Source of the DNA: Parcubacteria group bacterium
GTDB lineage: Bacteria > Patescibacteriota > Minisyncoccia > Phycocordibacterales > Zambryskibacteraceae
Length of the DNA stretch: 61,291 nt
Assembly (NCBI GenBank): GCA_028286565.1
Contig: JAQBRH010000003.1
Location: 1 to 61,291, forward strand
Direction of reading: 5' to 3'
Shown piece after piece: positions 1,299-23,734 of the stretch. Both the position numbers and the translations under genes were made by a program. Position 1 is the first letter of the stretch; each line of letters begins with the position of its first letter. Below the pieces are notes generated by a model that saw only the letters and a list, made by a program, of their open reading frames with translations, made no database searches and had not been told where the DNA came from.

Positions 1299-2081
1299 AT
1301 GAAAAAGATACTCGTCTTCGTTCTCGTCTGTATGTACACTCTGGGGCTGCCGGCGGTTGTTTCTGCCGCGTTGACCACCGGAGCCGCAACCGGCGACTAT
1401 ATAGGAATAGGATTCGATCCGTCCATCTCAAATATCGAAAGCGAATTTACTATTATGATGTGGATCAAACCAAACTCAACCATCAGCACGAACAGGGCCC
1501 TGGTCGGCACCAGGCCGAACGCCGCTAACGGCTCTTCAAATATGTCTCTTCGAACAGCGGCGGGAGCACCAGCTACCGATATCTCTCTTAGGCTCGCAAA
1601 GACAGGAGGATTGAGGTTCGACACCACAGATGCGCCTCTGTTGCCGGGCGAATGGACGTTCATTGCCGTGACTCACAGCGAATCCGCCTCAACGACGAAC
1701 CTGTATCATGGTTCGCTGCGCCAAACGGCGATCGAGAGCACGTATTCTTTTCAAAGCACGGTCACGGGCGCTCCTACCGCCTCCGGAGGAACGGACCCGT
1801 TCGTGTGGGGGAATAGATGGGCGCCGGGCGGCCCCACATCGGCGTTCACAGGCACGTTTGCCGTAGCCGCTATCATTAACAGATCGATTTCTCTCGGGGA
1901 AGTACGCGCCTGGCAGTATGCTCCGAGAAATATACCCGGGACGGTGAATCTGATGTTCTTCGGACTGGCGAGCGGCATAGGAACCCAGCCTGATTTTTCA
2001 GGATTTAAGAACATAGGCACTCCGGTCGGTTCGGTGACCTTTAACCCGGTGAACCTGCCGTTTAAGTGGTTCAAGCGTTAA
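1299..2081 (+). CDS. secreted LamG / concanavalin A-like lectin domain protein
   Basis: Has a signal peptide (MKKILVFVLVCMYTLGLPAVVSA). The pattern FTIMMWIKP...EWTFIAVTH...NLYHG is typical of Laminin-G-3-type jelly rolls. It starts 2 nt after the upstream stop. Confidence 0.6.
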   Translation: MKKILVFVLVCMYTLGLPAVVSAALTTGAATGDYIGIGFDPSISNIESEFTIMMWIKPNSTISTNRALVGTRPNAANGSSNMSLRTAAGAPATDISLRLAKTGGLRFDTTDAPLLPGEWTFIAVTHSESASTTNLYHGSLRQTAIESTYSFQSTVTGAPTASGGTDPFVWGNRWAPGGPTSAFTGTFAVAAIINRSISLGEVRAWQYAPRNIPGTVNLMFFGLASGIGTQPDFSGFKNIGTPVGSVTFNPVNLPFKWFKR

Positions 2082-3340: not shown

Positions 3341-3346
3341 ACAGGA

Positions 3347-3677
3347 GGTACCGGTTGATCGCTCCTCTGGTAGAGATACAAGAGGGGAGGAAAGTCCGAA
3401 CATTCGGTCCTCTCTACAGCATATGCATAGAGAGAACACGAGTAGCAGGTAACGCCTGTCGGGGGTAACCCTAGAGATGCGAACAGAGACGAATCTTTGG
3501 TATGTTCGGGGCTTGCCCTGAGCGTGTCGAAGGGTGAAACGGCAAAATTCTTACTTGAATGCAAGGCCGTGCTCCGACTTCGGTCGGAGAGTGCCGCTCG
3601 AGGGCGCGAGTGATCGCGCTCCCAGATAAATGATCATCCACCGCTTCGGCGGGGACAGAATTCGGCTTATAGGTACC
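3347..3677 (+). ncRNA. rnpB: RNase P RNA, bacterial type A
   Basis: P4 strands GAGGAAAGTCCG (about 3385) and ACAGAATTCGGCTTATAG (about 3655). Also GGTAACGCCTG, GGGTGAAACGG and CAGATAAATGATC motifs. The P1 helix pairs ggtacc 3347-3352 with ggtacc 3672-3677. Confidence 0.9.
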
Positions 3678-3681
3678 CACG

Positions 3682-3710
3682 ATCCCCGGCGCTTGCGTTC
3701 GGGGATTTTG
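3682..3710 (+). terminator. intrinsic terminator after rnpB
   Basis: 7-bp stem atccccg/cggggat followed by TTTT. Confidence 0.6.
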
Positions 3711-3782: not shown

Positions 3783-6149
3783 ATGCACGATATTCAAGCC
3801 AGCCCGAATTCGATCAAAAAAGAGCTCCCCGCGGAGCAAACGATCTTCTCGAAGCTTGATATGGGGAGGCTTGCATACTGGACGATCTCTCTGACCGTTC
3901 TTATCCTTCCTTTTTTCTTCATCCCGTCTTCTCTGGTCACCCTCGATGTGGCGAAGGGCATCATGGCTTCGGTCGGCATCACTCTGGCCCTCATCTTTTT
4001 CGTTCTTCATATCCTTGGGCGGGGCGAGTTCTCTTTCCCGCGCAGCAAACTTGCGTATGGGATCCTCGGGGTGCCGCTTGTCCTCGGCCTCTCGTCTTTT
4101 TTCGGGAATCCGCAGGCTCCTTCCTTGTATGCGTTCGGACTCGAGTCATACGGCGCTCTCCCAGTCATCCTCGGGTTTGTCCTCCTCCTCATCACTTCTC
4201 AGATCTTTGCCGTCCGAAAGAGGATCTTTTATTCATACTTTGCCTTGATCGTCGGGTTCCTTGTGGTTGTCCTCTTTGCGGTTCTAAAACTCGCCGTCGG
4301 GCCGGACACCCTGTCCTTCGGCGTCCTTATAGGCAAGTCATCTACTCCTGTCGGCGTTTGGACCGATGCGGCGATCTTTGTGGGGCTCGGCCTTATGCTC
4401 GTGGCGGCGGCGCTTGACCTTGAACTGCCAAAGCCTACGAAAGCCGTCTTGTATGCCGTGCTCGTCGTCGGCCTCCTCCTCCTCGCTGTATTTAATTTTC
4501 AGATGCTATGGATCGTGCTCGTTCTCTTTGCCGTCGTATTTTCTCTCTACAATTTCAGATTTCGAGCGAGGATCTCCGCCGCAGCCATCATCATCTTCTG
4601 TATCTCGAGCGTCTTTCTTGCTAACCCGGTTATCTCGTCGATCGCACTTAATGATCGCATTGCGAACGCGCTTCATGTCTCAAACATCGAGGTTCGCCCG
4701 TCTCTCTTGACTACGGCGGGGATCCTTCCTCATTCGCTGAAGAAAAATCTCCTCCTAGGCACGGGTCCCGGCACGTTTAGTCCTTTGTGGAATCTGTACA
4801 AGCCGGAAGGCATCAACCTGACGCCGTACTGGGGAACGAATTTCTTGTACGGGTTCGGCCTTCTCCCCACGTTCTTTGCGACCACCGGCATCCTCGGCAT
4901 CCTCGCTTGGGTATGGTTCTTCGCCTTTTATATTCGTACGGGAATACGGGCGTTGAAAGCACCGGAAACCGGCATATCGAATTTCTTTACCGTTTCTTCG
5001 TTTTTCGGCTCGCTCTTCTTGTGGGTGGCGAGTTTCCTCTATGTGCCGAACCTCACGATCCTTCTCCTGACCTTTTTCCTCACCGGGATTTTCCTCGGCA
5101 ACTCGGTTCTCCAAGGTGCGCCCCAGCGGACGTTCGTCTTTAAAGGTAAAAAAGCGGGAGGGTTTGCGGCGGCGGTCATGGCTATCCTTGTGCTTGTCGG
5201 AGGGGCCGCCCTGGGGTATGCCCTCGTTACGCGGGGGCTTTCAAGCGTCTACTTTAATCAGGCCGTCATAGAGGCCAATAGGGACGGGGATGTCGACCGG
5301 GCCATCCAAAGCTTGCACAAGGCGGCTTCACTTTCAGATTTTGATTTCTACTATCGCACGAACGCCGAGCTCACCATGCTCCGGATGACAAAGATGGTGG
5401 AAGGCAAGGCGGTAAATGAGGAGACGGGGAAACTTGTCAGCCAATCCCTGAACACATCTCTCGGCCTCGCGGGGTCCGCCATTGCCCGCGATCCTGAAAA
5501 TTATCAGAACCACCTCACTCTCGGCAGGATATATGACGCCCTCCTCCTTCCGCCGTTCTCGTTGCCGGAAGCGTATGAGAAGGCGAAGTCTTCGTACATG
5601 AATGCGCTCGCGCTGAATCCGCATGATCCGGAGATATATCTTCTCCTGGGGAAACTCGAGATCGAACACAACAACCTCGATGCCGCAAAGGGGTACATCA
5701 TCAAAGCTCTTGCCGAAAAGAACGATTATGTGGATGCCTATTTCCTTTCTGCGCGCATCGCTATCCTTGAAAATAATATCTCCCAAGCCCTGAAGGATTC
5801 GGAAGCCTTGGCGGCCCTGTCCCCGAACAACCCGGGCGCTTTCTTTCAGCTCGGAGTATTGCATTATAGCGCCGGAGAATATAAGGCAGCGGCCGAAGCC
5901 CTGATCCGGGCAGAAATGCTCGTGCCGGACTATGCGAACGCCAAATACTTCCTCGGCCTCACATATTACAAGCTGGGAGATGCGGGGCGCGCTTTGAAGG
6001 AGTTCCAAGACTTGCAAAAGGCCAATCCTCTGAACGCTGACCTTGCCTCGGTCATAGAAAACCTTCAGAGTAACCGCGATCCTCTCTACAAGATCAGCAA
6101 TGTAAAGACACGAGGGGAGTCGGTCACTCCGCCGCTCGGCACCCGCTAG
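3783..6149 (+). CDS. polytopic O-antigen-ligase-like membrane protein with C-terminal TPR repeats
   Basis: More than 10 predicted TM helices. LLGTGPGTF motif after the large loop. The last ~250 aa are TPR-like (AYEKAKSSYMNALALNPHDPEIY..., YKLGDAGRALKEFQ). Confidence 0.7.
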   Translation: MHDIQASPNSIKKELPAEQTIFSKLDMGRLAYWTISLTVLILPFFFIPSSLVTLDVAKGIMASVGITLALIFFVLHILGRGEFSFPRSKLAYGILGVPLVLGLSSFFGNPQAPSLYAFGLESYGALPVILGFVLLLITSQIFAVRKRIFYSYFALIVGFLVVVLFAVLKLAVGPDTLSFGVLIGKSSTPVGVWTDAAIFVGLGLMLVAAALDLELPKPTKAVLYAVLVVGLLLLAVFNFQMLWIVLVLFAVVFSLYNFRFRARISAAAIIIFCISSVFLANPVISSIALNDRIANALHVSNIEVRPSLLTTAGILPHSLKKNLLLGTGPGTFSPLWNLYKPEGINLTPYWGTNFLYGFGLLPTFFATTGILGILAWVWFFAFYIRTGIRALKAPETGISNFFTVSSFFGSLFLWVASFLYVPNLTILLLTFFLTGIFLGNSVLQGAPQRTFVFKGKKAGGFAAAVMAILVLVGGAALGYALVTRGLSSVYFNQAVIEANRDGDVDRAIQSLHKAASLSDFDFYYRTNAELTMLRMTKMVEGKAVNEETGKLVSQSLNTSLGLAGSAIARDPENYQNHLTLGRIYDALLLPPFSLPEAYEKAKSSYMNALALNPHDPEIYLLLGKLEIEHNNLDAAKGYIIKALAEKNDYVDAYFLSARIAILENNISQALKDSEALAALSPNNPGAFFQLGVLHYSAGEYKAAAEALIRAEMLVPDYANAKYFLGLTYYKLGDAGRALKEFQDLQKANPLNADLASVIENLQSNRDPLYKISNVKTRGESVTPPLGTR

Positions 6150-19663: not shown

Positions 19664-19735
19664 GGCCCTATCGTCTATCGGTTAGGACACAAGCTTTTCA
19701 AGCTTGGAAGCAGGGTTCGACTCCCTGTAGGGTCA
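19664..19735 (+). tRNA. tRNA-Glu(TTC)
   Basis: Acceptor ggcccta/tagggtc (G2-U71), anticodon arm caagc-ttTTCaa-gcttg, T arm caggg-ttcgact-ccctg. Confidence 0.9.
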
Positions 19736-19828
19736 TGGCATACGAAATGAGCGTCCGAGAGGGCGCCATTTTCGTACCATGACCCTAAGCAAGGTGACAA
19801 TTCACCTTGCGTCAGGGAGTCGAAAGGG

Positions 19829-19881
19829 TTTTCGTTATCGAGTATGCCGAGATCGAAAACCACCCGCGACGGTAGTCGAGA
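19829..19881 (+). repeat. 53-nt conserved module, left copy (inverted partner at 23472-23524)
   Basis: ttttcgttatcgagtatgCcgagatcgaaaaccacccgcgacggtagtcgaga. The reverse complement of 23472-23524 is identical except C/T at 19847. Confidence 0.95.
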
Positions 19882-19896
19882 CTCCCTGTAGGGTCA
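19880..19896 (+). repeat. exact 17-nt duplicate of the tRNA-Glu 3' end (G57 to discriminator)
   Basis: gactccctgtagggtca is identical to 19719-19735. Confidence 0.95.
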
Positions 19897-19973
19897 CAAC
19901 GGTTCCAAGTTATATTCCTCAACGTATTTTTCGTGTGGCCAAGGGGATAAAAACCACACAGATTATATGGATA

Positions 19974-20002
19974 AGAAAAAAAGGTTCAGCCGAAGCTGAA
20001 CC
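19974..20002 (-). terminator. intrinsic terminator of the 208-aa gene
   Basis: ggttcagc-cgaa-gctgaacc with a T-run on the minus strand. Confidence 0.6.
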
Positions 20003-20048
20003 CAAAGTCGAACATATTATATGCACAAGTACGGACATCTCGTCGACC

Positions 20049-20675
20049 CTATACGGTTGGGGACGCAATCACCTCACAAAAGTTGTGATAGTACCCTCTT
20101 CGAGAGGGATTAACCCATCTGATTTGGGCCTTCGTTGGGTAAGGTCCCCTCCCGAGTTTAGGAACCGAACCATCGGAAGTGAGAGATCCGTTACAGAGTG
20201 TGTCATCCCAGAAATCTTTTCCGCTCTCAACAAAGTGCTTGAGCCTTAGAACCAGACACTCCAGAAGCGTAACTCCAGGGATTTTGTGGTAAGCAAGATC
20301 GGTTGCTGAGGCAACCCGCCTTTCTCCATCCCGGATGTCATCCCTGAAACGGAACCAAACAGCATACGCACCGTTTTTGGGATTGCGATCGTTGTGACTG
20401 ACAAGCTCGTCGAGTGAGACCTCAGTGTGCTGATTAACCGATTTGTATTTCCATCGGTAGATCTCAAGCACACGCTCCAGTGTCAATCCTTGAGGGATGA
20501 CAATCACCGAGGAAATGGGGGCTTGGTAGACGGGCACCTTAACTAGCTCAAGGCTGATGCCGAAGTGGTTCCGGTAGAACTCGCGCCATTTTTCGATTTG
20601 TAGATCTGCACGCGGGTTGTTGAAATAATCGTACCACTGCTGTGGTGAGATTGTCCCAGTAGAAATTCTTGGCAT
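20049..20675 (-). CDS. hypothetical protein (208 aa, no recognisable motif)
   Basis: Start moved to MPRISTGT, which has AGAGGA 8 nt upstream. It has its own terminator. Confidence 0.5.
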   Translation of the reverse strand: MPRISTGTISPQQWYDYFNNPRADLQIEKWREFYRNHFGISLELVKVPVYQAPISSVIVIPQGLTLERVLEIYRWKYKSVNQHTEVSLDELVSHNDRNPKNGAYAVWFRFRDDIRDGERRVASATDLAYHKIPGVTLLECLVLRLKHFVESGKDFWDDTLCNGSLTSDGSVPKLGRGPYPTKAQIRWVNPSRRGYYHNFCEVIASPTV

Positions 20676-20822
20676 GATTGGGTCCTCTAGAAGTGGTGTA
20701 ATCGCCCAATCGTGGGCAATATAGGCTTGTGTATATAAGGAGCGACTTTTCAAACAATACAACATTTACCGAGATAATTCAAGTGGTTCATAAATGAGCT
20801 GAGGTAAGATATTTACACACCC

Positions 20823-20855
20823 GGTTCCAATCCTGTACAGCATGGGTCACTTGAC
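20823..20855 (+). repeat. T-arm-like intergenic repeat R1 with attached -35 box
   Basis: ggttccaatcctgtacagcatgggtcacTTGAC. A TTGACA-N17-TATAGT promoter follows. Confidence 0.8.
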
Positions 20856-20914
20856 AATCTAATACATTGTATATATAGTGCTTTTAGCCTGCACACTCAA
20901 CCTTTGAGGGAATT

Positions 20915-21304
20915 ATGAGCAAAAAGAATCCGCTGATCCTCGTTGCTGATACCGACGGGCATTACCGCAACGAGAAAGAGCGTATGCTCCGTGCACGAGG
21001 TTTTCAAGTAGTCCTCATGGACGAGGCAAGCGAGATTCTCGAGTTCGCCGAGCAACATCATCCGGATCTGATCATAACTACGTTACTCCTGAGTGGAAAC
21101 TCCGGCTTAAACGGAGGAGATGTCTGTGCAGCCCTCCGCCGTGGAGACGCGACGCGAGACATCAGGCTCGTGATTCATACCGGAGCAGACCTCAGACCAG
21201 AGGACATGCAATATTTTATTGCTCAGGGCGCCGACGGAGTCCTGCCCAAGTCGGAATCCCTGGATGGTTTGTATTCAGTGATCTGTGAGCTTCTGCGCAC
21301 ATGA
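20915..21304 (+). CDS. stand-alone receiver (CheY-like) domain lacking the phospho-acceptor Asp
   Basis: ILVADTDG...PDLIITTLLL...RLVIHTGAD...GADGVLPKS. Aligned by eye to CheY, T87 and K109 are kept but D57 aligns with Thr. Confidence 0.6.
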   Translation: MSKKNPLILVADTDGHYRNEKERMLRARGFQVVLMDEASEILEFAEQHHPDLIITTLLLSGNSGLNGGDVCAALRRGDATRDIRLVIHTGADLRPEDMQYFIAQGADGVLPKSESLDGLYSVICELLRT

Positions 21305-21313
21305 TCAATAGGG

Positions 21314-21338
21314 CCCCGATTTCGGTCGGGGTTTTTTT
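21314..21338 (+). terminator. intrinsic terminator
   Basis: ccccga-tttcgg-tcgggg followed by ttttttt. Confidence 0.65.
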
Positions 21339-21363
21339 CATATCAAAATTCCTGAAAAGCACC

Positions 21364-21413
21364 TATATACCTATAGACTTGGTTCCAATCCTGTATAATT
21401 AGGGTCACTTGAC
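21364..21413 (+). repeat. T-arm-like intergenic repeat R2 (extended form)
   Basis: tatatacctatagacttggttccaatcctgtataattagggtcacTTGAC. A TTGACT-N17-TATAAC promoter follows. Confidence 0.8.
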
Positions 21414-21466
21414 TTTTAATAATAATTAGTATATAACGCACTCCAGTTCTTTCACTGGAGGTTTGA

Positions 21467-21751
21467 ATGATACGCAGTAGCAAGAAACAACCTCTGCGCG
21501 GCGATGACATCGTGGCTCGCTTCCCAAACGGGTTAGATGTACCATCCTTTTGGCATAGTGAAGCGCAGCAGTACGTCGTCAACATCAGAGAGCCCATCCG
21601 ACTGTATCGTGATCCGAGCAATCGATTCGATGCCTGGTGGGTAGACATTTCTTCACTGTACGAAGAGGGTGAAGAGCCGAGGTTGATAAAACCTCAGTAC
21701 GCTAAGTACCCACTTCGCGGCAGTGCCAATCAATTCGTGATCCACGGGTAA
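21467..21751 (+). CDS. hypothetical protein (94 aa)
   Basis: ORF between repeat R2 and a terminator hairpin (gatctcacgc/gcgtgagatc plus T-run at about 21800-21830). Confidence 0.45.
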   Translation: MIRSSKKQPLRGDDIVARFPNGLDVPSFWHSEAQQYVVNIREPIRLYRDPSNRFDAWWVDISSLYEEGEEPRLIKPQYAKYPLRGSANQFVIHG

Positions 21752-21829
21752 GACGACAAACAAAAAGTCTTGTACCAAACTCCAGCCTTACAGTATCTCG
21801 ATCTCACGCCGTGCGTGAGATCTTTCGTT

Positions 21830-21874
21830 TATATACCCATAGACTCGGTTCCAATCTCGTATACTATGGGTCAC
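21830..21874 (+). repeat. T-arm-like intergenic repeat R3 (extended form)
   Basis: tatatacccatagactcggttccaatctcgtatactatgggtcac. Confidence 0.8.
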
Positions 21875-21921
21875 ATAAAGAGATACATTTTTCTCAACGT
21901 ACTTTGGTATAATACAGCCCA

Positions 21922-22821
21922 ATGAAACATGTAATTGAATCTCAACAATTTACTAGAGATTTAATTGATAAACTATTCCGTCTTGCTCATAAACTTGAGA
22001 AGAAGCCTGATAACTCTTTGAAAGGCAAAATAATGGCTTCAGTCTTCTATGAACCGAGTACCAGAACTCGGTTTTCTTTTGAATCCGCGATGATCCGATT
22101 AGGGGGAAATGTAATTACGACAGAAAATGCAAAAGAATTTTCCTCTGCTGCCAAAGGAGAAACTTTGGAGGACTCAATTAGAGTAATAAATAATTATGCC
22201 GATATAATTGTTCTAAGACACCATGAACAAGGTGCTTCAAAAAGAGCTTCTTTGGTCTCTGGCGTTCCGATAATCAATGCTGGCGATGGAATTGGACAAC
22301 ACCCCACCCAAGCATTGCTAGACCTTTATACGATCGAGAGAGAATTAGGGAAAATTGATGGCACTGTCATAGCCTTGGTTGGAGACTTGAAGCACGGGAG
22401 AACCATTAGATCCTTGGCTTATTTGTTAGGGAAGTATAAAAACATCCACATACAATTTGTATCGCCGGCTGCACTACGGGTTGGAAGTGATATAAAAGAT
22501 TACCTCACACGACATAAAGTTTCTTATTCAGAAACCGATGATCTCGAATTAGTCGTCTCTAGTGTTGATGTGGTGTATCAAACAAGGATTCAAAAAGAAC
22601 GATTTACGACCACAAAAGAATACCTCAAATATAAAGGCTGTTATCAGATCGGCACAACGTTGGTAAAACAGATGAAGAAAAAGTCCATCATCATGCATCC
22701 TCTGCCAAGAGTAGATGAGATCCTTTCAGAAGTTGATGCTTCACCTAAAGCTGCTTATTTTAAGCAGGCTAGGTATGGAGTGTTGGTTAGAATGGCACTT
22801 TTAAAATATCTCTTAAGTTAG
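21922..22821 (+). CDS. pyrB: aspartate carbamoyltransferase catalytic chain
   Basis: STRTRFSFE, HPTQALLD and HPLPR motifs. An extended -10 TGGTATAAT (21905-21913) ends 8 nt before the ATG. Confidence 0.9.
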   Translation: MKHVIESQQFTRDLIDKLFRLAHKLEKKPDNSLKGKIMASVFYEPSTRTRFSFESAMIRLGGNVITTENAKEFSSAAKGETLEDSIRVINNYADIIVLRHHEQGASKRASLVSGVPIINAGDGIGQHPTQALLDLYTIERELGKIDGTVIALVGDLKHGRTIRSLAYLLGKYKNIHIQFVSPAALRVGSDIKDYLTRHKVSYSETDDLELVVSSVDVVYQTRIQKERFTTTKEYLKYKGCYQIGTTLVKQMKKKSIIMHPLPRVDEILSEVDASPKAAYFKQARYGVLVRMALLKYLLS

Positions 22822-22923
22822 CAATTGCTAATTTGTATAATTATTGAGCCACCAGTACGGTAGCTTTTTTCATATCAAAATTCCTAAGGAATTCAGAACT
22901 GGTATAATAAGCGAATACCTACT

Positions 22924-23376
22924 ATGAAATCAGAAAAATCTACAGTACTGAGAATGGACAACATGGGCATCGTGGTAGAGTCTCTCGATGAGGTTGTTTC
23001 TTTTTTCATCGAACTCGGGCTCACGCTTGAGGGGCGGGCTATGATCGAAGGAGAATGGGCCGGCCGTGTTACCGGACTGGGGGACCAGCAGGTTGAGATC
23101 GCAATGATGATCACTCCCGACGGCCACAGCCGGCTCGAACTCTCGCGATTCATTACTCCGGTTGTAGTCGCAGATCACCGCCGGGCTCCCGTGAATGCTC
23201 TTGGCTACCTGCGGGCCATGTTCACCGTAAGCGACCTCGATGAGACGCTCGGGCGTCTTCAAACGCACGGCACGGAGCTCGTCGGTGAAGTGGTTCAATA
23301 CGAGAACTCGTATCGGCTCTGCTATGTTCGAGGCCCCGAGGGGCTTCTTATCGGCCTGGCTGAGGAGCTGCAGTAG
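22924..23376 (+). CDS. VOC / glyoxalase-bleomycin-resistance family protein
   Basis: MDNMGIVVESLDEVVSFF..LG and the second-half pattern LRAMFTVSDLDETLGRL...G..L. An extended -10 TGGTATAAT lies at 22900-22908. Confidence 0.75.
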   Translation: MKSEKSTVLRMDNMGIVVESLDEVVSFFIELGLTLEGRAMIEGEWAGRVTGLGDQQVEIAMMITPDGHSRLELSRFITPVVVADHRRAPVNALGYLRAMFTVSDLDETLGRLQTHGTELVGEVVQYENSYRLCYVRGPEGLLIGLAEELQ

Positions 23377-23454
23377 CCTCCTTATATTCGAAAATTCGGC
23401 TCTGAAACATGAGTCCATTCGCCCGCCTCAACTGAGTGCGGGTTTTTTATAGTA

Positions 23455-23473
23455 GGTGCGCGATACAGGATTC
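23455..23473 (-). repeat. exact 19-nt duplicate of the tRNA-Val 3' end (G57 to discriminator plus 2 trailer nt)
   Basis: ggtgcgcgatacaggattc is identical to 23660-23678. Confidence 0.95.
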
Positions 23474-23524
23474 TCGACTACCGTCGCGGGTGGTTTTCGA
23501 TCTCGACATACTCGATAACGAAAA
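23472..23524 (-). repeat. 53-nt conserved module, right copy
   Basis: Its reverse complement matches 19829-19881 at 52 of 53 positions. Confidence 0.95.
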
Positions 23525-23661
23525 TCTTACAGATTCTGTCCACTCATTGGATCTTTTGAAAAAAGCTCTCAATGAGTCTTGCGAAGCTCCAAGTATTCGC
23601 TTCTCACCCTTTCAAATCCTGCCGCAAAGCAAGCAGTTGCTTTGCTATCGCAAATCTCGGG

Positions 23662-23734
23662 TGCGCGATACAGGATTCGAACCTGTGACCCTCTCAACGT
23701 CAATGAGATGCTCTACCAACTGAGCTAACCGCGC
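23662..23734 (-). tRNA. tRNA-Val(GAC)
   Basis: Acceptor gcgcggt/atcgcgc, anticodon arm tctca-ttGACgt-tgaga, T arm acagg-ttcgaat-cctgt. Confidence 0.9.

Follow-up and report, generated by a model that had tools for sequence, protein, structure and literature searches.

In the stretch of DNA analysed here (hereafter the window; 61,291 nucleotides from a Parcubacteria group bacterium), a 53-nt module at 19829-19881 (+) recurs as its reverse complement at 23472-23524 (-), and each copy adjoins a duplicate of the 3′ end of a tRNA gene. The locus raises the question of what the module belongs to: an inverted repeat around the segment in between, as an earlier note on this DNA considered possible, or something tied to the tRNA genes themselves. 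The two copies agree at 52 of 53 positions, the single difference being C/T at 19847. There is no third copy, since a search allowing up to three mismatches gave exactly two matches in the window, as against none in 100 shuffles, and the covariance model of the whole element described below matched at these two places only.

The module and its two tRNA genes

The junction between module and tRNA duplicate at G57/A58, already pointed out in the earlier note, was confirmed for both tRNA-Glu (duplicated nt 58-73) and tRNA-Val (nt 58-75). Seventeen nt of tRNA-Glu (GACTCCCTGTAGGGTCA) are present again at 19880-19896 and 19 nt of tRNA-Val (GGTGCGCGATACAGGATTC) at 23455-23473, so that both modules lead straight into a tRNA copy, which runs from G57/A58 to N73 in the Glu case and to C75 in the Val case. 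The module was also rightly taken to be non-coding: the two ORF-track entries that share VVFDL(G/D)ILDNEN are the same repeat read on opposite strands.

On the forward strand the intact tRNA-Glu(UUC) gene (19664-19735; ARAGORN, and Rfam tRNA at 57.6 bits) contains the upstream copy of the direct repeat, i.e. nt 58-73, at 19720-19735 as judged from the coordinates. It is followed by a spacer (19736-19779) with a terminator-like hairpin, GCGTCC-GAGA-GGGCGC, and then CATTTTCG; by sequence and fold, the hairpin lies in a near-perfect palindrome reaching into the 3′ strand of the tRNA acceptor stem, and a terminator scan gave a match at 19751-19766. Next comes TGACCCTA (19780-19787), antisense to tRNA-Glu nt 66-73 and a perfect Watson-Crick complement, whereas the tRNA's own 5′ strand has a G-U pair. 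Hairpin A (19789-19810) keeps its 8-bp stem (alignment and RNAalifold; nine covarying pairs) and has the loop ACAATT, the usual loop of the family being AACUGCUU. The 5′ strand of stem B, CAGGGAGTC, antisense to nt 57/58-65, and the junction strand J1, GAAAG, occupy 19813-19826. The module itself (19829-19881) then brings hairpin C (19827-19861), the junction strand J2, ACCCG (19862-19866), mini-hairpin D, CGAC-GGTA-GTCG (19867-19878), and A, G and A58; its 20-mer that is invariant family-wide lies at 19861-19880. The downstream duplicate of tRNA-Glu nt 58-73 (19881-19896) would provide the 3′ strand of stem B and of an acceptor-like stem, both of which are predicted in the fold of the Glu element. 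As a whole, the element (19776-19899) scores 118.7 bits with the family covariance model and has a folding z of -7.9. The suggestion that the module end imitates the T loop holds in part: the terminal ..GUCGAG-A does resemble UUCGA-A, but in the conserved fold mini-hairpin D takes GUCG as its 3′ strand, and the final G has the C of UCGAAAG as its partner.

The Val element lies on the reverse strand (23454-23658) and scores 72.4 bits, a value lowered by an insert of 82 nt. The intact tRNA-Val(GAC) gene (23662-23734; ARAGORN and Rfam) has its nt 58-75, the upstream repeat copy, at 23660-23677. The left part of the element (23609-23652) comprises antisense to the acceptor 3′ strand (23646-23652), hairpin A with the canonical loop AACTGCTT (23624-23645), the 5′ strand of stem B (23614-23621) and a degenerate J1 (23609-23613 plus the preceding base), which reads TGAAAG for CGAAAG. 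The extra 82-nt module (23525-23606), found here in the Val element only, has a homologue among the internal modules of a larger tRNA-tail element of another kind at three other loci (L039, L012 and L044). In the Val element a module of another element type has thus been joined to the 53-nt module. The latter follows at 23472-23524, with the 20-mer at 23473-23492, and is succeeded by the downstream duplicate of tRNA-Val nt 58-75 (23455-23472).

Each insertion in the window therefore carries both a sense and an antisense copy of the 3′ end of its tRNA. Only two of the 11 tRNAs in the window carry an element; the other nine have plain trailers or terminators, and none of these native trailers already carries the antisense. 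The tRNA-Glu and tRNA-Val genes converge, and it is for this reason that the modules are inverted, the window probably holding two independent insertions. Near-identity of the modules beside quite different hairpins A may well reflect recent copying of the module alone between the Glu and Val elements. In the sole other assembly of the source DNA (L001/L089) the contig ends inside the repeat, and the proteins flanking the Glu and Val sites are not on record elsewhere, so that source relatives offer no empty-site variant. Empty sites would be expected to read ..GGTTCGACTCCCTGTAGGGTCA joined to CAACGGTTCC.. and ..GGTTCGAATCCTGTATCGCGCACC joined to TACTATAAAA.., and an excision circle would be expected to show ..CGGTAGTCGAG, ACTCCCTGTAGGGTCA and TGGCATACG.. 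in direct succession.

A family of tRNA-tail elements in Patescibacteria

The last 20 nt of the module, CACCCGCGACGGTAGTCGAG, have exact matches at 87 further loci, all in Patescibacteria where labelled: they were found in 40 species-representative genomes, all of them Patescibacteria, and in 47 metagenome contigs. The family comprises about 100 copies elsewhere, a sample that the exact 20-mer search biases towards conserved cores. A tRNA gene on the same strand was present within 400 nt upstream in 64 of the 80 unique copies, and 12 of the other 16 are cut by a contig end; the module is thus no generic interspersed repeat scattered over loci unrelated to tRNAs, and its connection with tRNA 3′ duplicates extends well beyond the window. 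In nearly all cases the 20-mer stands at a distance of 65-356 nt behind a tRNA, whose sequence is repeated after it from A58 onwards. The targets cover 21 anticodons and 13 amino-acid identities, with different tRNAs being occupied in different genomes. In the CPR (Patescibacteria) there is a previously undescribed family of tRNA-tail elements with the 53-base repeat as its conserved core, and a full-text literature search returned no description of such an element. The module itself is likely to be the most conserved, 3′-terminal building block of non-coding mosaic insertion elements of about 110-210 nt.

The order of parts within an insertion is spacer, tRNA 3′ antisense, hairpin A, UCGAAAG, variable hairpin C, ACCNG, mini-hairpin D and tRNA duplicate. 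The direct repeat most often extends from A58 to N73 plus 0-2 nt and is mostly 16-19 nt long. Only 21 of 54 pairs have an exact downstream tRNA copy. The acceptor part of this copy decays while the core stays intact, and the antisense arm fits the functional tRNA (361 Watson-Crick pairs, 38 mismatches) better than the decaying duplicate (316 and 70). The acceptor antisense is missing or poor in many copies (e.g. L007a, L008, L029, L038 and L040). About 40% of the copies have a canonical terminator between tRNA and element, and some copies sit inside tRNA operons (e.g. L007). A CCA at the junction between tRNA and element, as a proof of RNA origin, was rejected: it is not consistent and was found at L042 and L009 only. 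At the position of hairpin C, which is lost in L004, extra DNA can be found: L023 has a GIY-YIG gene there, L065 about 245 nt and the Val element its 82 nt.

Comparison of related sites points to insertion. At L018, tRNA-Gly(tcc) is directly followed by the native flank, whereas at L039 the same tRNA is followed by 128 nt, a 17-nt duplicate and then the flank as in L018; the flanks of the two loci are 94-98.6% identical, as expected for a clean insertion. Tandem units occur at L020, L028 and L054/58, and the number of units varies between one and two in contigs that are 96-98% identical. Decayed and truncated copies were also found. Moreover, copies on the same contig behind different tRNAs can have identical cores and differing hairpins A (1.00 versus 0.50 at L007; 1.00 versus 0.77 at L053), Pro and Gly copies at L017 have a derived core variant in common, and at L020 one left part occurs with different cores. 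Many copies lie at contig ends, which means that the element breaks assemblies; in addition, it gives rise to false ORFs and to partial calls of tRNAs when CPR genomes are annotated.

Searches for a known family or an enzyme were negative throughout. With Rfam 15, the window gave tRNAs and RNase P only at the gathering score, and there was nothing over either element at E <= 10 on either strand or over the variant cores of six loci at E <= 0.05; the module matches no family and a known RNA family was rejected. An origin from a phage or plasmid was rejected likewise, as blastn gave no match against 50,697 phage and 72,556 plasmid records, and IMG/VR contained neither the exact 20-mer nor the module halves. 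There is no ORF inside the element. Among the neighbours of the copies, only syntenic housekeeping genes (YraN, CCA-adding enzyme and ExoIII) recur as protein families, so that a recurrent neighbouring recombinase or reverse transcriptase was rejected; the 38 long ORFs of the window have no recombinase, reverse transcriptase or transposase domain, and the island ORFs of 208 aa and 94 aa match nothing in Pfam, NCBIfam or PHROG. The GIY-YIG nuclease was discarded as the enzyme of the element, being nested in a single copy only, inside hairpin C of L023. The abundant GIY-YIG family of about 80 aa to which it belongs (2649 clusters) otherwise lies behind tRNA-Gln with a different leader and without the element, and the covariance model detected no element at 14 such GIY-YIG/tRNA-Gln loci. 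Autonomous members with an endonuclease gene, as in a homing-endonuclease-driven family, were accordingly not found.

Fold, proposed mobility and competing explanations

RNAalifold predicted four helices for the family, and all four covary. With the covariance model 96.6% of the cells were pairing, versus 75.8% for shuffled sequences and 32-50% when the partners were slid, and double changes occurred in all 29 model pairs, these counts being taken from an alignment fitted to that model. Diverged copies retain mini-hairpin D with substitutions that compensate each other, such as CGGC/GCCG and GGCTAT-GTA-ATAGCC. Over hairpins A, C and D together, G-U outnumbers A-C by 19 to 3, which indicates that the tRNA-sense strand is the folding strand, although this tolerance cannot tell RNA from single-stranded DNA. 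The junction strands (GAAAG, ACCNG and AG) are short, invariant and flanked by variable helices. On the tRNA-sense strand, then, the antisense and sense tRNA pieces are predicted to pair into a multi-helix junction with invariant joining strands. Pairing of the hairpin A loop with the tRNA D loop was rejected, the antisense signal not exceeding the control.

Our best reading, to which we give a probability of about 0.6, is that of a non-autonomous mosaic mobile element acting via a folded single strand at tRNA 3′ ends. No enzyme, excised form or transcript was seen, so that mobility is deduced from comparative patterns only. Insertion would spare the tRNA and add a spacer (often with a terminator), an optional antisense of nt 66-73, hairpin A and the antisense of nt 58-64, then UCGAAAG, at least one hairpin module (here hairpin C, ACCNG, mini-hairpin D and AG) and the tRNA duplicate from A58 to N73 or slightly beyond. 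Propagation may proceed through a folded single-stranded intermediate of tRNA-sense polarity, either RNA that a reverse transcriptase copies or single-stranded DNA, and an enzyme supplied in trans would recognise this intermediate by its fold. The tRNA-derived arms would give homology to, or pairing with, the target, so that integration at T-loop position 57/58 (equivalently after N73) would regenerate a whole tRNA and leave nt 58-73, displaced or copied, behind as a direct repeat. An antisense arm that fits each new tRNA cannot result from simple copying of the whole element; retargeting by a few substitutions (T stems being similar) or a templated step must be assumed. Furthermore, the terminators between tRNA and element in about 40% of the copies argue against obligatory co-transcription and hence against a simple RNA intermediate.

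The design of the junction, with a target-antisense arm and a target copy, suggests that targets are chosen by base pairing, which, if so, would open a way to a new ribozyme, a new mechanism of recombination or retro-integration, or a programmable insertion tool. A bolder version, which we consider tentatively, is a class of mobile elements guided by structure and base pairs, in which a three-way-junction core of roughly 70 nt, with an antisense 'guide' on one side and the last 16 tRNA nt in sense on the other, would by their pairing home to the T loop/3′ end of essentially any tRNA gene via RNA or single-stranded DNA, the core possibly being catalytic or a handle for a trans-acting enzyme. 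If so, ultra-small bacteria would possess an insertion system that spares tRNAs and is programmable by nature. CPR bacteria (Patescibacteria) have tiny genomes and are thought to be poor in mobile DNA. A widespread family of elements that settle at tRNA genes and do not inactivate them would be new with respect to Rfam 15, to the collections searched (phage, plasmid and IMG/VR) and to the publications covered by the literature search.

Since the 20-mer has long been conserved across CPR classes, a host function is also conceivable. The element might be a host-selected structured RNA, i.e. a non-coding RNA acting in cis or trans (tRNA-like decoy, processing signal or regulator) that is transcribed with the tRNA or after it and engages the 3′ half of the tRNA, or else the duplicate, through its antisense arm, having spread by duplication and concerted evolution instead of transposition. 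Such an RNA would fit the covarying helices with their invariant joining strands, the G-U excess on the tRNA-sense strand, the better match of the antisense arm to the functional tRNA and the copies within tRNA operons, as well as the minimum-free-energy fold of tRNA-Glu plus element, in which the downstream copy closes a cloverleaf that has the element inserted in its T loop. This explanation nevertheless seems unlikely in view of the sporadic distribution (elements at two of the 11 window tRNAs, and at other tRNAs in other genomes), the clean insertion polymorphism, the tandem arrays and truncated copies, and the canonical terminators that separate many copies from their tRNA; moreover, the full-length fold would disrupt the upstream tRNA.

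In the same fold both G57/A58 junctions meet at one three-way junction, as might be expected of a T-loop intron or a small self-cleaving and ligating ribozyme that cleaves at G/A58 and joins tRNA nt 1-57 to the downstream copy. Short invariant junction strands with variable, 'programmable' helices are found in small ribozymes, and hairpin C can be lost (L004) or take up large inserts (L023 and L065), as a peripheral intron loop can. However, the decay of the acceptor part of the downstream copy beside an intact core rules this copy out as an obligatory exon, the upstream tRNA is whole without it, and no Rfam ribozyme or intron matched on either strand at E <= 10, making this possibility quite improbable. 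For a group I intron, with its P1-P10 core and obligatory 3′ exon, there is no RF00028 match and the core of only about 70 nt is at odds with it; as to the hammerhead (CUGANGA ... GAAA ... UH), the strands GAAAG, ACCNG and AG include no CUGANGA, and the junction order is unlike its core.

It is highly improbable that the elements are scars of classical integrase islands, i.e. attP arms left after deletion of the cargo, with crossover in the T loop. A direct repeat that starts in the T loop and reaches the 3′ end of the tRNA, as found here around the insert, is reportedly the signature of T-loop-type tRNA integration; the window elements flank a low-GC segment of 3.6 kb with three decayed tRNA-Glu-like 3′ fragments, and some copies have the extra DNA at hairpin C, which would also suit this reading. 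Yet none of the about 100 copies has an integrase (tyrosine or serine recombinase) in or beside it, most copies are free of cargo, one conserved core serves 21 different tRNA targets, and double-stranded attP arms would not show arm-core covariation or compensatory changes in three internal hairpins.

Least probable is that the functional unit is the segment between the two modules, either invertible or a composite transposon: the 53-bp inverted repeat (98% identity, 3.58 kb apart), the lower GC of the segment (0.37-0.50 versus 0.55-0.60), its cassette-like genes with their own promoters and terminators and two further convergent pairs (L066 and L086) would suit it, but the convergent tRNA genes fully account for the inverted geometry, most copies are single, tandem or in direct orientation, also in tRNA operons without an island, and the segment between the L066 pair has no obvious island character. 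The inverted repeat around an island is therefore not supported as the main point of the locus, although recombination between the 53-bp repeats might still invert the 3.6-kb segment. The three 45-nt repeats of the island are absent from the other loci.

Comparison with known systems

Integrases that use tRNA genes reportedly fall into sublocation classes that include crossover in the T loop, in a scheme attributed to Williams. The mobile element favoured here resembles such integrative elements in its site at the tRNA 3′ end, in leaving the tRNA intact and in the direct repeat from T loop to 3′ end around the insert. It differs in measuring about 130 nt rather than kilobases, in lacking integrase and cargo, and in having one core for at least 21 tRNAs, an att core that is also present in antisense and a single-strand fold with covariation.

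With MITEs and REP/BIME mosaic repeats the element shares small size, lack of coding capacity, multiple copies, non-autonomy, recombining hairpin modules and the breaking of assemblies, as well as, for MITEs, insertion polymorphism and a flanking duplication. Unlike these, it has no terminal inverted repeats of its own or from a parent: the left end is a variable spacer, the right end is the 20-mer, and the only inverted segments are target-derived. It also keeps strictly to tRNA 3′ ends and to the orientation of the tRNA, its arms come from the target, and its 16-19-nt 'duplication' always starts at A58.

IS200/IS605 elements have guide tetranucleotides beside subterminal hairpins, and group II introns rely on EBS-IBS pairing. 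In both, as here, a short sequence at the foot of a hairpin is complementary to the flanking target, and insertion occurs beside the paired segment. The pairing of our element, however, covers 7-16 nt rather than 4-6, and the element contains a copy of its target. Its two end hairpins are dissimilar, hairpin A (9 bp, loop AACUGCUU) being unrelated to hairpin D (4-6 bp, loop G(G)UA), and this, together with the direct repeat and the lack of TnpA and TnpB, also sets it apart from IS200/IS605-derived PATEs and omega-RNAs; there is no intron reverse transcriptase and no Rfam intron match.

The Mauriceville/Varkud retroplasmids of Neurospora have a 3′ tRNA-like structure, their reverse transcriptase starts at tRNA 3′ ends and tRNA sequences are captured, according to the passages of PMC9925561 that deal with them (citing Chiang & Lambowitz 1997). 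As far as these passages go, the joining of tRNA 3′ sequence and the possibility that any tRNA donates its 3′ end are common to both, and a tRNA-like acceptor/T-arm fold at the 3′ end of the unit, as predicted for the Glu element, may be so too. Unlike the plasmids they describe, our element has no linked reverse transcriptase, is located in a bacterial chromosome rather than a mitochondrial plasmid and has no consistent CCA, and its antisense arm has no counterpart there.

Finally, integron attC sites and the CTX-phage attP(+) differ from the element in their recombination apparatus and target. The element has no recognisable IntI/Xer-type core or adjacent integrase: RYYYAAC...GTTRRRY boxes, intI/attI and cassettes do not characterise it, no GTTRRRY-type core being found at the junctions (..GTCGAG/A..), intI being absent and most copies not lying beside cassettes. 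Its target is a tRNA gene, and it may act as RNA or as DNA. Like these sites, however, it keeps structure over sequence in most of its length, has branch hairpins, a variable terminal structure and tandem arrays, and would rebuild from sense and antisense segments a duplex copy of its target on one strand.

The Glu and Val elements of the window

The 53-nt module at 19829-19881 (plus strand) equals the reverse complement of 23472-23524 except for a single C/T difference at 19847 (52/53), as the earlier note had stated, and a search of the 61 kb allowing up to 3 mismatches returned only these two copies (none in shuffled sequence). The note's further claims, that both modules run into duplicates of tRNA 3′ ends and that the two ORFs sharing VVFDLxILDNEN are one repeat translated from opposite strands, hold as well. 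That is, tRNA-Glu(UUC) lies at 19664-19735 (plus strand) and tRNA-Val(GAC) at 23662-23734 (minus strand), both identified by ARAGORN and Rfam, and the last 17 nt of tRNA-Glu (G57-A73) are repeated at 19880-19896 (plus strand) and the last 19 nt of tRNA-Val (G57-C75) at 23455-23473 (minus strand). In the direction of either tRNA the order is tRNA, insert (~145 nt behind tRNA-Glu, ~187 nt behind tRNA-Val), module and tRNA 3′ duplicate, and the modules are inverted because the two tRNA genes converge. The other nine tRNAs in the window have ordinary trailers, the bacterial class A RNase P RNA at 3343-3685 (Rfam, 111.9 bits) is an ordinary gene, and the genes are otherwise housekeeping, e.g. MurJ, LepA, LeuRS, FtsZ/FtsA, GyrA, IF-2 and ClpB. 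The first observation was right and worth attention; the suggested inversion of the island is a secondary idea.

Each insert contains an antisense copy of the 3′ end of its own tRNA, split at the same place in both by a hairpin (hairpin A). The layout is TGACCCTA, hairpin A, CAGGGAGTC-GAAAGG in the Glu insert and TGCGATA, hairpin A, CAGGATTT-GAAAGG in the Val insert, where 82 additional nt separate GAAAGG from the module; the stems of the two hairpins A are kept with different sequences. In both inserts the antisense arm is a perfect Watson-Crick complement to the tRNA 3′ strand, rather than a duplicate of the tRNA 5′ strand with its G-U pairs. When folded as RNA, the Glu insert is predicted to form (z = -7.9) an acceptor-like stem, hairpin A, a stem B in which the antisense pairs with the tRNA duplicate, and a three-way junction holding the module. 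In the predicted minimum-energy fold of tRNA-Glu plus insert (z = -10), the downstream copy closes the cloverleaf, with the entire insert protruding from the T loop.

Distribution and conserved fold of the family

The 20 nt at the 3′ end of the module (CACCCGCGACGGTAGTCGAG, the 20-mer) match exactly at 40 loci in the set of species-representative genomes, every one of them in Patescibacteria (Saccharibacteria, Paceibacterota, Lloyd-, Taylor- and Nomurabacteria, Minisyncoccia), and in 47 metagenome contigs; the IMG/VR, phage and plasmid collections gave no match. A same-strand tRNA lies within 400 nt upstream in 64 of the 80 unique copies (21 anticodons, 13 amino-acid identities), so that the module is tied to tRNAs and is not an interspersed repeat unrelated to them. 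In these 64 the median distance from tRNA end to 20-mer is 109 nt, and a contig end cuts 12 of the other 16. After the 20-mer, every copy continues with A and the T-stem 3′ strand of a tRNA; upstream of the 20-mer stands (N)UCGAAAGG, itself preceded by the complement of that strand.

At two loci (L034, 1248-1321, and L075) ARAGORN assigned the element-bearing tRNA the anticodon UUA ('Stop'); in a CPR genome this might be a suppressor-type tRNA or a misread one. In public MAGs, many copies of the family lie no more than 250 nt from a contig end. The sole other assembly of the DNA studied here, a Logan contig (SRR13312974; loci L001/L089), corresponds to 19852-22980 of the window and begins 30 nt within the module, which is exactly the k-1 overlap for k=31 and indicates that the repeat breaks de Bruijn assemblies.

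The RNAalifold consensus of 34 aligned copies consists of hairpin A (9 bp, with AACUGCUU as the usual loop), an 8-bp stem B (including UC of UCGAAAG paired with G-A58), a variable hairpin C and the mini-hairpin D (CGAC-GGUA-GUCG), with joining strands J1 (GAAAG), J2 (ACCNG) and J3 (A). The module comprises hairpin C, J2, hairpin D and J3, its 5′ two-thirds being the variable hairpin and its 3′ third invariant. A covariance model built from this alignment gave 120 matches among 88 sequences and, in the window, only the two elements. In the covariance-model alignment, standard pairs occupy 96.6% of cells versus 75.8% after shuffling and 32-50% with the partners slid, and both-side changes are seen at 29/29 pairs, figures that lean towards the model because the alignment was fitted to it. 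Independent support for the fold comes from diverged copies without the exact 20-mer, which keep hairpin D with other sequences (CGGC/GCCG, GCCGA-AGTAA-TCGGC, GGCTAT-GTA-ATAGCC, CCCT-GCA-AGGG). Across hairpins A, C and D there are 19 G-U pairs against 3 A-C mismatches, and it is therefore the tRNA-sense strand that folds, as RNA or single-stranded DNA. The element thus keeps a conserved single-strand fold of tRNA-sense polarity.

Insertion, mosaicism and the segment between the elements

A tRNA-Gly(tcc) locus common to two loci (L018 and L039; flank identity 94% and 98.6%) is empty in L018, where ATAAAATACTTTGACCC.. directly follows the tRNA, and filled in L039, where the tRNA is followed by 128 nt of element, the 17-nt duplicate ACTCCCTTATCCCGCAC and then the same flank. 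The junction is fixed between G and A58 and the tRNA is left intact; the direct repeat mostly runs from A58 to N73 plus 0-2 nt, and is longer with tandem units or co-duplicated flank. Tandem arrays occur (L020, with 130-nt units; L028; L054/58), the number of units varies between contigs 96-98% identical, and truncated and decayed copies are present. Of 54 pairs, 21 have an exact downstream duplicate; within the duplicate, the T-stem part that makes up one side of stem B is retained at 92% versus 84% for the acceptor part, and the antisense arm is a closer match to the functional tRNA than to the decaying duplicate. Since the tRNA upstream is complete and the copy downstream decays, the element cannot be an obligatory intron.

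Copies behind different tRNAs of one contig can have identical cores while hairpins A and antisense arms differ (hairpin A identity 0.50 in L007 and 0.77 in L053, core identity 1.00 in both). The Pro and Gly copies of L017 have a common derived core variant, CACCTAGGGCGG, and in the converse case (L020) one left part is followed by two different cores. An alternative terminal module, ..GGGGTCGNGAG-hairpin-CTTGTGACCGA running into A58, is found in L031, L082, L028 and L039, and a larger element of this kind in L039 has an internal module to which the 82 extra nt of the Val element are homologous. The element is thus insertion-polymorphic, multi-copy, non-coding and mosaic. The Val element is such a mosaic, into which the module was recently copied, the simplest donor being the Glu element at a distance of 3.6 kb; hence the 52/53 identity beside unrelated flanks.

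The element types ending in CTTGTGACCGA before A58, without the 20-mer (L031 3545-3770; L082 ~1407-1556, minus strand; L028 1880-2030; L039 6896-7095, minus strand), follow the same logic of antisense arm, hairpin modules and tRNA copy from A58, and in the last, 20 contiguous nt are antisense to tRNA nt 54-74 and the direct repeat measures 41 nt. Beyond the duplicate, several loci carry one more spacer and hairpin A with no core after it, complete in L020 (~5000-5035) and L024 (~95-135) and cut within the AACTGC loop in L064 (843-863) and L087, which hints at a preferred breakpoint or terminus within hairpin A. In L017 (~2566-2660), L053 (7664-7747) and L052, full tRNA and element are separated by extra partial tRNA copies (from ~nt 45 to nt 73) with a GCGAAGC mini-hairpin before them; GCGAAGC/GCGNAGC mini-hairpins, which are unusually stable as DNA, recur in spacers and hairpin C loops. 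A short palindromic repeat, GCCACAGGTCGGACCTGTGGC with variants, inserted in the terminator after the tRNA-Gly duplicate (L053 8040-8110 and 9200-9290; L016 ~215-300) may be another small hairpin repeat of these genomes.

The segment between the Glu and Val elements (19897-23454) has a GC content of 0.37-0.50 versus 0.55-0.60. It encodes a 208-aa (minus strand) and a 94-aa protein, both without a match in Pfam, NCBIfam or PHROG, a stand-alone receiver-domain protein, a glyoxalase-family protein and, in the lowest-GC stretch (~0.37-0.42), an aspartate/ornithine carbamoyltransferase-like protein. Three 45-nt direct repeats (20806-20850, 21364-21408 and 21830-21874; 71-84% identical), absent from all other loci fetched, each stand shortly before a promoter-like site with one gene, and each hold a decayed tRNA-Glu-like 3′ fragment (GGTTCCAATCCTGTA..GGGTCAC, corresponding to G52-C74, with G57C and an insert of 5-6 nt). 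The 3.6-kb segment therefore looks like small cassettes serially accreted at tRNA-Glu. An exact 21-nt direct repeat, TTTTTTCATATCAAAATTCCT, occurs at 21333-21353 and 22865-22885, immediately after two terminators, at apparent cassette boundaries.

Proposed propagation and comparison with known systems

Neither the copies and their immediate surroundings nor the window encode a recombinase, reverse transcriptase or transposase. In one copy (L023), a GIY-YIG gene sits within hairpin C and takes its stop codon from the TAG of hairpin D. This protein family (2649 clusters, ~80 aa) otherwise lies behind tRNA-Gln, with a different structured leader and without the element, which makes L023 a nested insertion. 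At further loci (L090 2487-3240, L100 2444-3249; also L093, L094, L096, L102), tRNA-Gln is flanked by small GIY-YIG genes, one type on the 5′ side and following a 22-nt duplicate of the tRNA 5′ end (cut in the D loop), the other (~80 aa, very abundant) directly 3′ behind a conserved structured leader starting at N74; they look like another family of tRNA-linked selfish genes in CPR.

We favor, with a probability of about 0.6, a non-autonomous mobile element acting through a folded single strand. It would propagate via a folded single-stranded intermediate, with an enzyme supplied in trans and the tRNA-derived arms giving pairing or homology with the target. Any specific route is much less probable than this, and two fit the anatomy equally well. 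In the first, a small circle with one copy of nt 58-73, perhaps folded single-stranded DNA by analogy with integron attC or CTX-phage attP(+), would integrate Campbell-style into the tRNA gene. The second is modelled on Neurospora retroplasmids, whose reverse transcriptase, according to PMC9925561, can begin synthesis both at a tRNA-like structure located 3′ and at the 3′ ends of tRNAs. Here a reverse transcriptase would start at the tRNA or pre-tRNA 3′ end and, on reaching the T loop, stop or switch to element RNA as template (this RNA ends in ..UCGAG, which is similar to UUCGA); the resulting hybrid cDNA would recombine with the tRNA gene. The fixed A58 boundary and the variable right boundary would both follow from this route, but CCA at the junctions is inconsistent and terminators often precede the element. 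Neither route accounts for matching of the antisense arm to a new tRNA, for which stepwise retargeting among tRNAs with similar T stems would be the least demanding assumption. That the conserved junction and guide-like arm mark a new mechanism is less likely than not, but a genuine possibility.

No Rfam family matches the element on either strand, the elements contain no terminal inverted repeats, integron-type core or similar hairpins at both ends, and no description of the family was found in Rfam 15, the phage, plasmid and IMG/VR collections or the literature searched. We file it as a small non-autonomous insertion element, which resembles tRNA-integrating islands, MITE/BIME-type repeats, folded-strand recombination sites and tRNA-like retro-elements in separate respects, but does not fit the definition of any of them in full.
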